A DNA stretch of 63,987 nucleotides, filler included, from an uncultured Methanosarcinales archaeon (GTDB lineage: Archaea > Nanobdellota > Nanobdellia > Woesearchaeales > UBA12501): NCBI GenBank assembly GCA_964397315.1. It is 4 parts of 4 records of this genome, joined end to end, with 100 filler letters (N's around TTAATTAATTAA, not from the genome) between each part and the next. Parts side by side here need not be neighbours in the genome. Positions count along the whole stretch, not along the records: positions 40,985 to 60,807 come from CAYNHV010000023.1; 3 more parts are not named here. One strand, written 5' to 3'. Each line of letters starts with the position of its first letter. Positions within the stretch are counted from its first letter, which is position 1. Positions 54,001-57,000 of this stretch are shown in pieces. The position numbers are program-made.

Positions 54001-57000
54001 AGACTGCTGTCTCACCAATGCTTTCTGGCTCAGGGGAGAAATCAGTCTTTCTGATGGCCTGCCCTGCTGTTTCCTTGGGAAAAAAGGATATGTTGGCTGT
54101 TATGAAGTCAATCTTTGGAGAGGGGCTTAAGGAGACCACCTCCAGCTCGGTTGACAGCCTAACATCAAGAAGCATATGCCCGCTGTTGTAGAATCTGGAT
54201 TCCTCAATGCCGTGGCAGACAGGCAGTATAAGAAGCATGAGTATGAGGAGGATTGCTTTTTTCATCTTACCACTTTTTGAATGGAAAAACGCCGCGGCTG
54301 GGACTTTCAGGCGCAGGCCCCGCCTAACGCTCTTTGAACCCAGATATCCCGAAGGAAACCAGATTTCTGCGCATGATAGCAATCTGGCGCAGTACCAGGT
54401 TGTGCCACCGCGGCAATAAATTGCTTTGCTCTGAAGCCGCTTAAGCATTACCAGCAGCTATTCGGGCCATTCCGAGCAAAGCGAGGATATGGCCCTTGAT
54501 GGCCGGGTCAAGGAAGAAGACCCTTGAGCTGGTTGTGCCACCGCGGCAATAAGGCTTCTGCTTGCAACCCTATTTTTATAGTTTTCCCTTAAAAAAACCA
54601 AAAAGATTTATAAATGGGTTGCTGTTTGGCCATGGTATAGCGAGGTGGGGCAGTCAGGAGTGCCCGACGGGCTCATAATCCTCTTGTTGGGAGACCCGTA
54701 GGTCGGTGGTTCAAATCCACCCCTCGCTATGCTAATGCTCTCAGATTTTTTCGTGGGACTAAAGCTTTAGCTTTATGTCCCACCGGGTTCGCTTCCGAGG
54801 GTAGTGGTGACGCTCTTCTAAATCCACCCCTCGCTATGCTCACCCTCTAGTGTTTTAAAAGACTCTTCCAGAATCAGCTTTTCTTGAATCTTTTCCTTAT
54901 CTGGTTCTCCAGCTTGTTATAGACCTTGTGAAGTGTTCTTGCAATGTCCCAGTCCTCATACTCAGCCTCAAAAATCCTGGTGGGGGCGGAAACCTTTGCC
55001 TTTATTAGATATCTCTTCTGCCTGCCCTCTGAGTCAAATGTTTTCACGTGAAGCTCTACAGAGGTTATATTCTGGAGCTCCCTCTGAATCTTTCCGTAAT
55101 ACTCAGAGGACAGCTTGTCCACCACCCGCTTTTCTTCAGGGCTTAACTCATTAACTCCCTTGTATTGTATCTGCTCCATAAGTGTTGTTCTCTCATGTGA
55201 GTTTAAATATTTTTTGATAATACACAGAGGATAACAGGATTTGAACAGGGCAGCACAATGCAGCGCTTTTTTCAATAACTTTAAATAAGAAACCAGCAGA
55301 CATGAGAAGAATGGCTTTGATAGCTGGAATTGAGGAAGCGGGAAGGGGCCCTGTGATAGGCCCGATGGTCATGGCAGGGGTGCTTATAGACAGCGAGCAT
55401 GAGGAAACTCTTTCATTGAATGGTGTTAAGGATTCAAAGAAGCTCAGCCCAGCGCAGCGCGAGAGGGTTTTTGAATACCTGCAGGAAGCGGCGAAGAGCA
55501 TAAAGATAATAATAATAGAGCCTCATGTGATTGATTTCTATGTTGAGTCAGAGAATAAGAACCTGAACTGGCTTGAGGCTGACAAGACAGTGGAGATAAT
55601 AGACAGCCTGAAGCCTGATGCTGCATTCATTGACTGCCCGAGCAACAACATCAACGCGTATTCCAACTACCTTAGGTCAAGAATATCCCACAAGGCAGAG
55701 CTGCACTGCTCTCACAAGGCTGACGAGCGATATCCTGTTGTCGGCGCCGCCTCAATAATAGCCAAGGTCACAAGGGACAGGGAGATAAAAAGAATAAAAA
55801 AGAGTGTGGGAGATGACTTTGGATCAGGATATCCTTCTGACCCTGCGACAAGAAGATTCCTTGAGGAGAACTGGAGCAGGTTTCCCGAAATCTTCAGGCA
55901 CAGCTGGAGCTCGTACAAGGCTTTCTCAGAAAAGAAGTCCCAGAGCAGGCTGGGGGACTTTAAGAAGTAAAAAAAATCCGCAGCTTAAGCAGAGTTTTTG
56001 AAAAGCGGATTTTTGGAACTTTTAAAAGCCTTCATCTCCGCACTAAAGTGCGGAGCTTCCGGCTTATTAAAAGTAACATCACTTGAGGAACCTGAACTCC
56101 GCTTTCCCGGTTGCTTCACTGCCGTGCTTGTCAGTGCACTTGACATAATAGGTGTATTCCTTTCCCTCATCAAGCTCTGGCAGGTCTGCCTTAAAGCTCC
56201 TGTACCCTGTCTTGCTCATCGTAAGGTATGAGTAGGGGTTGTCATTATAACCGCACTGCACCTCATTCTTCACTATGTCCTCGGTTATCTTCAGGGACAG
56301 GACCGCGTCCTCCGAGCTTATGACTCCTGAAGGGGAGATGTTAATTATCTTCAGCTCTTCTGCCTTGTTCAGAACATATTCAAAGCTTTTCTTGTTTATG
56401 TTTCTTGCGCTGGTGTTTTCCTCTCTGGCTTTTATGATATAATGGTGGGTTCTTCCGGTTATGTTCCTCTCAGAGCTGTTGCTGCATGATATGCTTATGT
56501 TTGTCTCGCGGCCTGCAAGCTCAACATGCTTTCCGCACAGAGTATATTCATCTCCTGAAGCGCACTGCAGGGGGGTGTTGTTCCGGGAGCTGTTGATGTT
56601 CATGCTGCACTCGGCATCCGCTCTTGTGTAAATGCGTATGTCAACCCCGCTCATGTTCAGCTCAACAGTGTCCGCTCCTGAAAGGGCTTCTTCAAAGGTG
56701 ATATTCACGCTCCTGTTACCAGCCTTAGCCCTTTCAGGATTTCCATCCACAAGCTTGTTTTCCTCCCCCCTTATTATTCTGAGAGTGTAATTGCCTATTC
56801 TCCTGTCAAACTGGGTTGGCGGCTTCAGCAGCCCTGTACACTTGTAAATGCCCAGCTCTTTCCTGTCTGAAGGCTTGCAGGCTCCGAGCCTCTGCATCTT
56901 CTCAAAGCTGATGTCATCAAGAGAGTGCCTGAATTCCTTCCTGTCATCAGTGTATATGCTGAGCTCAACTTCAGATGTGTTTATGTCAAGCCTGATGATG

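Follow-up and report, generated by a model that had tools for sequence, protein, structure and literature searches.

A stand-alone HPF/RaiA-like protein in a Woesearchaeales genome, a putative CBS-less short form of the archaeal HibA/AHA-type ribosome hibernation domain

The window analysed here is a stretch of 63,987 nucleotides of DNA from an uncultured archaeon of the order Woesearchaeales (GCA_964397315.1). At positions 54874-55179, stop codon included, its minus strand carries a gene for a protein of 101 amino acids, delimited by open reading frame and translation, by a match to Pfam family PF02482 and by a start that homologues support. A longer alternative frame begins with TTG at 55275 and gives 133 residues; the ATG at 55179 is taken as the start because the same M-E/D-x-I-Q beginning is common to 22 of 22 close homologues in the alignment. 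Inspection of the sequence before this ATG found no Shine-Dalgarno-like purine run and a TATA-box-like A/T stretch at 55202-55210 on the same strand, its centre about 27 nt 5' of the ATG. Archaeal TATA boxes keep a characteristic position relative to the start, and by that rule the stretch would suggest a leaderless mRNA. The encoded protein is basic, with a pI of 9.4 that equals the median over 146 family members. The three datasets listed for the gene are all DNA, microbial mat metagenomes from one study, and no RNA dataset is among those listed.

The gene stands between RNase HII and tRNA-Met, as the survey's finding had stated. The RNase HII gene (55302-55970, plus strand; PF01351, 154.7 bits) is arranged head-to-head with it across 122 bp, and a tRNA-Met(CAT) gene of 93 nt (54638-54730, plus strand; predicted by ARAGORN, with an Rfam tRNA score of 51.6 bits) is convergent with it. 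In an Rfam scan of 54400-55350 the tRNA alone passes; a RAGATH-8 match reaches 15.5 bits where the gathering score is 86.7, and is to be discounted as noise. Among the 11 further loci that match best within the order, RNase HII adjoins the HPF-like gene on the opposite strand in seven and a tRNA-Met lies within 1.5 kb of it in four. The RNase HII gene is context and not part of the putative hibernation factor.

Membership of the HPF/RaiA superfamily is indicated by sequence comparisons and by a predicted fold. PF02482 (Ribosomal_S30AE) matches residues 21-100 over model positions 23-86 of 88 with 27.0 bits, above the gathering cut-off of 23.7 (E 7.8e-6), and gives 26 bits for the same gene in a six-frame search of the genome, while the NCBIfam yfiA equivalog TIGR00741 scores 25.6 bits, under its curated cut-off of 40.9, so that the protein falls outside the bacterial HPF/YfiA equivalog. 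A homologue search returned 23 proteins of 99-172 aa, four of which carry a precomputed PF02482 annotation and one of which is named 'HPF/RaiA family ribosome-associated protein'; all named homologues come from Candidatus Woesearchaeota, and Y27, Y28, R33, D78 and H84 are invariant across the alignment of 23. Similarity of sequence to solved HPFs is weak. The single sequence has five PDB matches (E 0.17-0.46), each of them an HPF; the family profile A1 finds 7m4z_v at E 0.11 (0.14 over positions 4-103 in the earlier search) and 9t0z_9 at E 0.18, and the profile A2 reaches E 0.0074 with its best match, again 9t0z_9, an HPF of 183 aa. In all these respects, from the passed Pfam cut-off and the homologue set to the invariant residues and the faint resemblance to PDB sequences, the survey's observations were reproduced.

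The AlphaFold2 (AF2) model of the protein (pLDDT 87.9, pTM 0.76) has HPF topology, with strands at residues 4-7, 40-49, 55-64 and 69-76 and helices at 14-35 and 79-99, in the order of elements that the HPF/RaiA/YfiA superfamily requires. Foldseek with this model gave 31 matches at E <= 1e-3 and TM values up to 0.78, and its listed ranks 1-38 are all HPF, RaiA, YfiA, pY or RafH chains. No HibA or AHA chain is among the matches from this library, which closed on 2026-04-08. Ranks 1-33 of the VIA comparison are likewise all HPF/RaiA/YfiA-type chains (Z 13.8-8.5), the highest-ranked of them covering 92-99 of the 101 residues in the alignment. Next in that ranking come double-stranded RNA-binding domains (dsRBDs), which have part of their fold in common with HPF, at Z of 8.0 or less. 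Judged by this predicted structure, the protein has the HPF/RaiA fold. It resembles the bacterial short HPF/RaiA/YfiA proteins in its size and single domain, and the HPF of Vibrio cholerae (4hei_A) superimposes with Z 13.8 and an rmsd of 2.0 over 92 residues. It differs from them in sequence, with an identity of 16-22% to the VIA chains ranked highest, and the turn between β4 and α2, which reads DWD(L/I)ARTLHK in the archaeal family, is D-M-Y-x-A-I in E. coli. The fold is also that of the N-terminal domain of the bacterial long HPFs of Staphylococcus, Bacillus and Thermus, but the protein stops at residue 101 and does not have their C-terminal dimerisation domain.

HPF-type domains have recently been found at work in archaea. 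In the available text of Madru et al. 2026 (PMC13324472) and Souza et al. 2026 (PMC13728122), HibA from Pyrococcus abyssi (PDB 9SR9-9SRF, 9T7H) and AHA from Haloferax volcanii (PDB 12DM), respectively, are each described as solved on the archaeal ribosome and as consisting of four CBS domains and an HPF-like domain, the latter occupying the A/P-site region of the archaeal 30S subunit. The protein considered here can therefore no longer be the first bacterial-type hibernation factor to be placed on an archaeal ribosome, as the survey had proposed.

The stand-alone protein is homologous to the 30S-binding, C-terminal domain of CBS-HPF fusion proteins from its own order. A phmmer search of the single sequence against 1.84 billion representatives gave 482 relatives at E <= 1e-3, and matched a 392-aa relative at residues 283-381 with 40% identity (E 2e-11); this longer protein carries CBS domains and aligns over residues 2-382 with P. 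abyssi HibA (9sr9_H, E 1.1e-19). Within frames of 350-420 aa from the order, all 19 family-profile matches have Pfam CBS at the N-terminus. Aligned by hhalign with these 19 fused domains, the stand-alone form scores 99.9% (E 5.4e-33, 109 columns), and the near-invariant K54, G60, P74 and W86 of the fused domains correspond to K46, G52, P66 and W77 of the stand-alone protein, residues conserved at 97%, 86%, 75% and 92% in the stand-alone family. A word-index search for longer forms found none, which reflects a limit of sensitivity, since exhaustive searching and genome scans found the fusions. The link to HibA itself is more distant: P. abyssi HibA is absent from the PDB matches of profile A2 at E <= 10, and the smaller profiles A1 and A3 match it weakly (E 0.43 and 0.042). 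By sequence alone, the domain is about equally distant from Thermococcales HibA and from bacterial HPFs. Its nearest longer relatives are archaeal fusions of four CBS domains with HPF, of the HibA/AHA type.

These relationships bear directly on the origin of the gene. The survey had read it as the bacterial way of silencing ribosomes taken over by a small clade of Woesearchaeota, that is, as a bacterial HPF gene recently transferred and now acting on archaeal ribosomes. The protein does pass a mostly bacterial Pfam model, its best PDB matches in sequence and fold are bacterial or plastid HPFs, and like a bacterial short HPF it is short and has no CBS module. However, the family profile gives 57-109 bits on the C-termini of the CBS fusions of the order and 6.0 and 10.3 bits on E. 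coli Hpf and RaiA, and the stand-alone and fused domains have in common a β1-α1 link longer than that of E. coli Hpf and RaiA and a β2-β3 hairpin that exceeds theirs by 5 residues, the places where HibA is described as having its two archaeal-specific insertions (PMC13324472). Furthermore, both trees that were built place the protein in one clade with the archaeal CBS fusions, the support values being 100 for one tree and 99/95 for the second, and a branch of about 1.7 separates this clade from the two E. coli sequences that formed the sole outgroup. In the available text of Souza et al. (PMC13728122) the archaeal and bacterial HPF clades are likewise unmixed.

Distribution already contradicts a recent import. 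Sampled genomes with a family-profile match number 344 of 401 in the order (227 of 257 genera) and 327 of 401 in the phylum (233 of 281 genera), far from the small clade that had been supposed, whereas PF02482 passes its cut-off in just 55 of the same 401 order genomes. The reported count of 27 in 10,117 archaeal genomes is an artefact of the low sensitivity of the PF02482 model, which was trained mostly on bacteria. Three forms occur within this one DPANN order, two stand-alone types and a CBS fusion. The genome itself carries SBDS, which among the controls is present only in the four archaeal ones. We consider a recent transfer from bacteria very improbable, and the gene belongs, as an unexceptional member, to an archaeal HPF-like family that is widespread. 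Of the earlier interpretation, the HPF/RaiA fold and, by analogy, the role of a short plug as the best reading are retained, and the small clade, the bacterial takeover and the claim to be first are given up.

The direction of change between stand-alone and fused forms is harder to read. The quick tree groups 46 stand-alone rows in a clade (support 96) beside the fused rows. In the careful tree, for which the five rows on the longest terminal branches (L060, L055, L040, P0134 and P0139) were left out, the 19 fused domains are nested inside the stand-alone clade. Holding the 40 type-1 stand-alone rows together lowers the log-likelihood by 1.37 units (AU test, p 0.458), so that neither arrangement is rejected, and a long-branch group of one family (L056, L050, L046 and L059) shifts between the trees, its placement not being trusted. 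The type-1 stand-alone form might be the older state in the order, the Woesearchaeales CBS-HPF fusions being derived or rebuilt from it within DPANN, an idea that we regard as doubtful. If true, it would reverse the polarity preferred in the available text of Madru et al. (PMC13324472), where stand-alone forms arise through loss of the CBS module.

One further question is whether this is a functional gene. Decay of a HibA-type gene after loss of its CBS part, or a chance open reading frame, might account for the unsteady gene calls, namely the 133-aa TTG frame and a homologue of the same genus that is called too long, at 172 aa, in the database. Such an origin is already contradicted by conservation, since at least 97 family-profile matches at E <= 1e-30, in 95 genomes of the order, are counted among the matches listed. 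Against it stand also the intact frames, the conserved N-terminus and the high-confidence predicted fold, and the gap of only 122 bp to RNase HII has no space for a lost CBS module. We give this explanation next to no credence; the gene is conserved.

A second question is whether a conserved protein of this fold acts in hibernation. A fold in common need not mean a common binding site, and an RNA-binder of HPF fold might instead modulate translation during growth, help to assemble ribosomes or bind some other structured RNA. The overlap with the dsRBD fold at Z of about 7-8 would suit such a role, loss of the CBS module could accompany a change of role, and the gene found head-to-head in 7 of the 11 related loci, RNase HII, is not a translation gene. 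Against this, the HPF chains lie 5 Z units above the dsRBDs, with nearly the whole protein aligned at the highest ranks, and the most conserved positions of the stand-alone form are those of the fused HibA-type domains, which argues for the same binding surface. The genome content points the same way. In this genome, which is 93% complete, the gene is the one HPF-type gene, and no protein with four CBS domains was found, the four CBS proteins being an HTH-CBS protein, a CBS pair, CNNM/CorC and IMPDH; if the protein had another function, hibernation would here be left without any HPF- or CBS-type factor. A function outside hibernation therefore appears unlikely.

We put at roughly 0.75 the probability that the gene product is a stand-alone archaeal HPF/RaiA-like protein, a CBS-less short form of the C-terminal HPF-type domain of HibA and AHA, with a predicted role at the decoding centre. 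By analogy with the complexes of HibA, AHA and bacterial HPF/RaiA, the protein most likely plugs the decoding centre of the 30S subunit without a CBS module, and the HPF-like proteins of the archaeal family probably plug idle ribosomes. HPF binds chiefly to rRNA. In idle cells the protein would be lodged between the head and body of the small subunit, in the channel for mRNA and tRNA, and would there cover the A and P sites, block the binding of mRNA and tRNA and so leave the ribosome stored and shielded. In contrast to HibA and AHA, the protein has no CBS tetrad, Pfam finding no CBS match in it and none of any kind beyond PF02482, so that it should make none of the contacts of that module with the PTC, uL5 and the L1 stalk and should not bind ATP or AMP. 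As neither these large-subunit contacts nor the sensing of adenine nucleotides would be available, control is probably exerted through the amount of protein. E. coli-type short HPFs have RMF as a partner, whereas in the 93% complete genome no RMF passes the cut-off (best PF04957 match 13.4 bits against 27.9), and the long-HPF dimerisation domain PF16321 has no match there at E <= 1. For want of both, the protein should act as a monomeric, RaiA-like plug and not as a maker of 100S dimers.

Stand-alone archaeal HPF-like proteins are a family already known, in print since 2026, under the terms 'HPF/RaiA-like' (Madru et al. 2026, PMC13324472) and 'canonical HPF homologs' (Souza et al. 2026, PMC13728122). 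As far as the available text of the two papers goes, 8% of archaea have them according to one, 'mostly DPANN and Nitrososphaerales', their count in the other is 926 proteins from 814 species, and both propose a hibernation role for them by analogy. The supplementary text files of the former (PMC13324472) contain no mention of Woesearchaeales, Woesearchaeia, Nanoarchaeota or Nanobdellota, and in the papers found, stand-alone archaeal HPFs appear in survey statements only and not in bench work. The protein described here is of the same kind: it is encoded in an archaeal genome of DPANN affiliation, lacks a CBS module and consists of one HPF-type domain, about 100 aa long; no distinguishing feature was found in a comparison with published proteins that are represented, in the available text, by survey counts only.

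The main value of the present analysis lies in correcting the impression that HPF is rare in archaea. Tables of Pfam presence, when used to flag transfer between domains of life, lead to repeated false alarms for small, fast-evolving domains. As a side reading, the CBS-less protein, as the sole HPF/CBS-type factor in the reduced genome of an episymbiont, would represent a minimal archaeal hibernation factor. The gene adds a further example to the picture that has emerged in 2026, of an HPF-type plug that is common to bacteria and archaea.

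The open reading frame at 54874-55179 on the minus strand, 101 residues as read from the window, encodes an archaeal HPF/RaiA-like protein of the stand-alone form, from an already catalogued family. It matches PF02482 (Ribosomal_S30AE) at 27.0 bits over a cut-off of 23.7, which confirms the survey's finding on this point, and the homologue counts, the set of invariant residues and the profile-to-PDB values given earlier could all be reproduced; the yfiA equivalog model of NCBI gives 25.6 bits, under its cut-off of 40.9. A TTG at 55275 opens a longer frame as well; the ATG at 55179 is the start, because 22 of 22 close homologues share the N-terminus M-E/D-x-I-Q at this same position in the alignment. 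An A/T-rich, TATA-like stretch is centered about 27 nt 5′ of this ATG, and reading of the sequence finds no Shine-Dalgarno-like run before it; set against the usual position of archaeal TATA boxes, these features suggest a leaderless mRNA. The same-genus homologue P0002 (locus L021) is recorded as a 172-aa "hypothetical protein," of which about 70 N-terminal residues stem from a start placed too far upstream, so that the frame runs into the RNase HII promoter region.

A single-sequence search of the PDB returned five matches, all bacterial HPFs and all weak (E 0.17-0.46). An AlphaFold2 model built on an alignment of 146 relatives has a mean pLDDT of 87.9 and a pTM of 0.76, and comprises a strand (4-7), a helix (14-35), three further strands (40-49, 55-64 and 69-76) and a closing helix (79-99). 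Searched against the PDB with Foldseek, the model gave 31 matches at E <= 1e-3, and among the rows listed, ranks 1-38 are all HPF, RaiA, YfiA, plastid pY or RafH, mostly as ribosome-bound chains. VIA-align placed the same HPF/RaiA/YfiA-type families at ranks 1-33 (Z 13.8 to 8.5), its top rows aligning 92-99 of the 101 residues, with double-stranded-RNA-binding domains ranked below them at Z <= 8.0. The predicted fold is thus that of an HPF.

The survey's finding had proposed a small clade of Woesearchaeota that took over a bacterial factor, the first of its kind on an archaeal ribosome. Searched exhaustively with phmmer, a set of 1.84 billion representatives yielded 482 relatives at E <= 1e-3, of which 121 reach E <= 1e-10; almost all of them are 97-150 aa in length, and only 2 of 11 scanned stand-alone representatives (98-146 aa) passed the Pfam cut-off. 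The 146-relative profile and PF02482 were compared on one sample of 401 genomes of the window's own order, Woesearchaeales, where, at E <= 1e-3, the profile found a match in 344 (254 of the 282 that are of high quality; 227 of 257 genera), against 102 for PF02482 at the same threshold and 55 over its cut-off. The apparent rarity thus reflects the limited sensitivity of the Pfam model. Across the phylum, Nanobdellota, 327 of 401 high-quality genomes matched the profile (233 of 281 genera), with some matches in other orders of the class down to E 1e-35. These tallies include genomes flagged as unpublished, every one of which matched (15 for the profile and 4 for PF02482 in the order, 6 for the profile in the phylum), and without them the profile tallies become 329 of 386 and 321 of 395. 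The family is large, archaeal and not rare, and the "small clade" is not supported.

The nearest longer relatives are fusions of the type of HibA of Pyrococcus abyssi and AHA of Haloferax volcanii, hibernation factors with four CBS domains and an HPF-like domain. The single sequence matched residues 283-381 of a 392-aa representative that carries CBS domains (phmmer, E 2e-11, 40% identity), and this representative aligns over residues 2-382 with PDB 9sr9_H (E 1.1e-19), which is P. abyssi HibA according to the data statement of Madru et al. 2026 (PMC13324472). Of the best 150 listed profile matches from the order, 19 fall within frames 350-420 aa long; all 19 loci were fetched, all have an N-terminal Pfam CBS, and their C-termini score 57-109 bits with the family profile; only four pass PF02482. 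When the profile of the stand-alone alignment was compared with that of the 19 fused domains, the match had a probability of 99.9% (E 5.4e-33, 109 columns), and the near-invariant K54, G60, P74 and W86 of the fused domains correspond to K46, G52, P66 and W77 of the 101-aa protein, conserved at 97, 86, 75 and 92% across the stand-alone set. E. coli RaiA and Hpf, in contrast, reach only 10.3 and 6.0 bits with the same profile, and the proposed bacterial takeover is not supported. Two other PDB chains are probably further solved archaeal CBS-HPF factors: 9i5v_14 (401 aa, named "RaiA"), matched by the fused-domain profile at residues 315-397 (E 0.61), and 9l96_a (a 406-aa "CBS domain-containing protein"), which was hit by the CBS part of the fusion representative (E 3.3e-23).

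The order contains three forms, two of them stand-alone and one fused. Relative to Hpf and RaiA of E. coli, every archaeal row carries 5-8 additional residues in the link between strand 1 and helix 1 and five in the β2-β3 hairpin, the two sites at which Madru et al. (PMC13324472) place the archaeal-specific insertions of HibA. The stand-alone form that includes this gene (type 1) and the fused domains have DWD(L/I)ARTLHK at the β4-α2 turn in common. A second, more Pfam-like stand-alone form (type 2) makes up most of 20 further loci (L043-L062) fetched from the PF02482 matches of the order sample; it scores 30-56 bits with the family profile, and its D-x-N-L-F motif at this turn is nearer to the D-M-Y of E. 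coli. Some genomes of the order combine type 2 with a fused or type-1 copy, and G222 and G157 have two different forms each. Two trees, with the two E. coli proteins as the root, unite type 1 and the fused domains in a single long-branched clade (quick tree: SH-aLRT 100, length 1.65, 84 rows; careful tree, built minus five long rows: support 99/95, length 1.7, 79 rows). The fused domains fall beside the stand-alone clade in one tree and inside it in the other, and type-1 monophyly was not rejected by an AU test (p 0.458), so that the trees and this test pick out neither loss of the CBS module nor fusion as the direction of change. Four rows of one family (L056, L050, L046 and L059) share a very long branch, and its placement differs between the trees.

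The claimed neighbors are as described: RNase HII (55302-55970) lies head-to-head with the HPF-like gene, and a 93-nt tRNA-Met gene occupies 54638-54730. In 7 of the 11 other best loci, which represent several families of the order, RNase HII is likewise the opposite-strand neighbor of the HPF-like gene, and tRNA-Met lies within 1.5 kb in four of the 11; we treat the RNase HII pairing as conserved gene order, with no functional reason seen. A 718-aa transglutaminase-like protein (52292-54448, minus strand; PF01841, 93.9 bits) and a 1305-aa cysteine-rich protein whose sole match, Ig-like, is below threshold (56079-59996, minus strand) flank this group, and both recur beside the HPF-like gene in same-genus and same-family loci. 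The last 29 nt of the tRNA-Met gene with its trailer (54713-54741) have a second copy 107 nt downstream (54820-54848, 26/29 identical), which has no usable T-arm 5′ of it, is not called as a tRNA, and may mark an old integration at the tRNA or have arisen by partial duplication. The contig that carries the HPF-like gene opens with 7 kb (40985-48000) of G+C 0.30-0.36, compared with about 0.47 elsewhere; genes there code for a methyltransferase, a NUDIX hydrolase, two radical-SAM/SPASM enzymes and a nucleoside diphosphate kinase, and the stretch may have been acquired as an island for modifying peptides or nucleotides. Positions 1-20823 of the window are contig C21 and the HPF-like gene is on C23, so that distances across the joins are meaningless.

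The genome (1.47 Mb, 61 contigs, 93% complete) has one HPF-type gene; at that completeness, neither an RMF over cut-off nor the C-terminal domain of long HPFs was found, and none of its four CBS proteins (an HTH-CBS protein, a CBS pair, a CNNM/CorC transporter and IMPDH) is a CBS tetrad. SBDS, seen on idle Pyrococcus ribosomes by Madru et al. (PMC13324472), is present. One 210-aa relative, P0124, joins an HPF-like domain (1-97) to a DUF4405/cytochrome-b561-like membrane domain and may be a membrane-tethered HPF.

The claim to a first of its kind is not supported either: structures of HibA (PMC13324472) and AHA on archaeal ribosomes are in print. Souza et al. 2026 (PMC13728122) describe AHA on the Haloferax ribosome, count 926 HPF homologues of the stand-alone kind, spread over 814 archaeal species in 12 phyla, and separate archaeal and bacterial HPFs into two clades; the same archaeal factors are cited by Chan et al. 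2025 (bioRxiv 10.1101/2025.11.04.686544). Literature searches on hibernation in DPANN or Woesearchaeota turned up no bench test of a stand-alone archaeal HPF. The analysis establishes homology, predicted fold and distribution for the 101-aa protein, and from these we infer ribosome binding and a physiological role by analogy with the solved factors: most likely it plugs the 30S subunit at its decoding-centre channel when cells are idle, and it would act as a monomer that neither senses nucleotides nor forms 100S particles.
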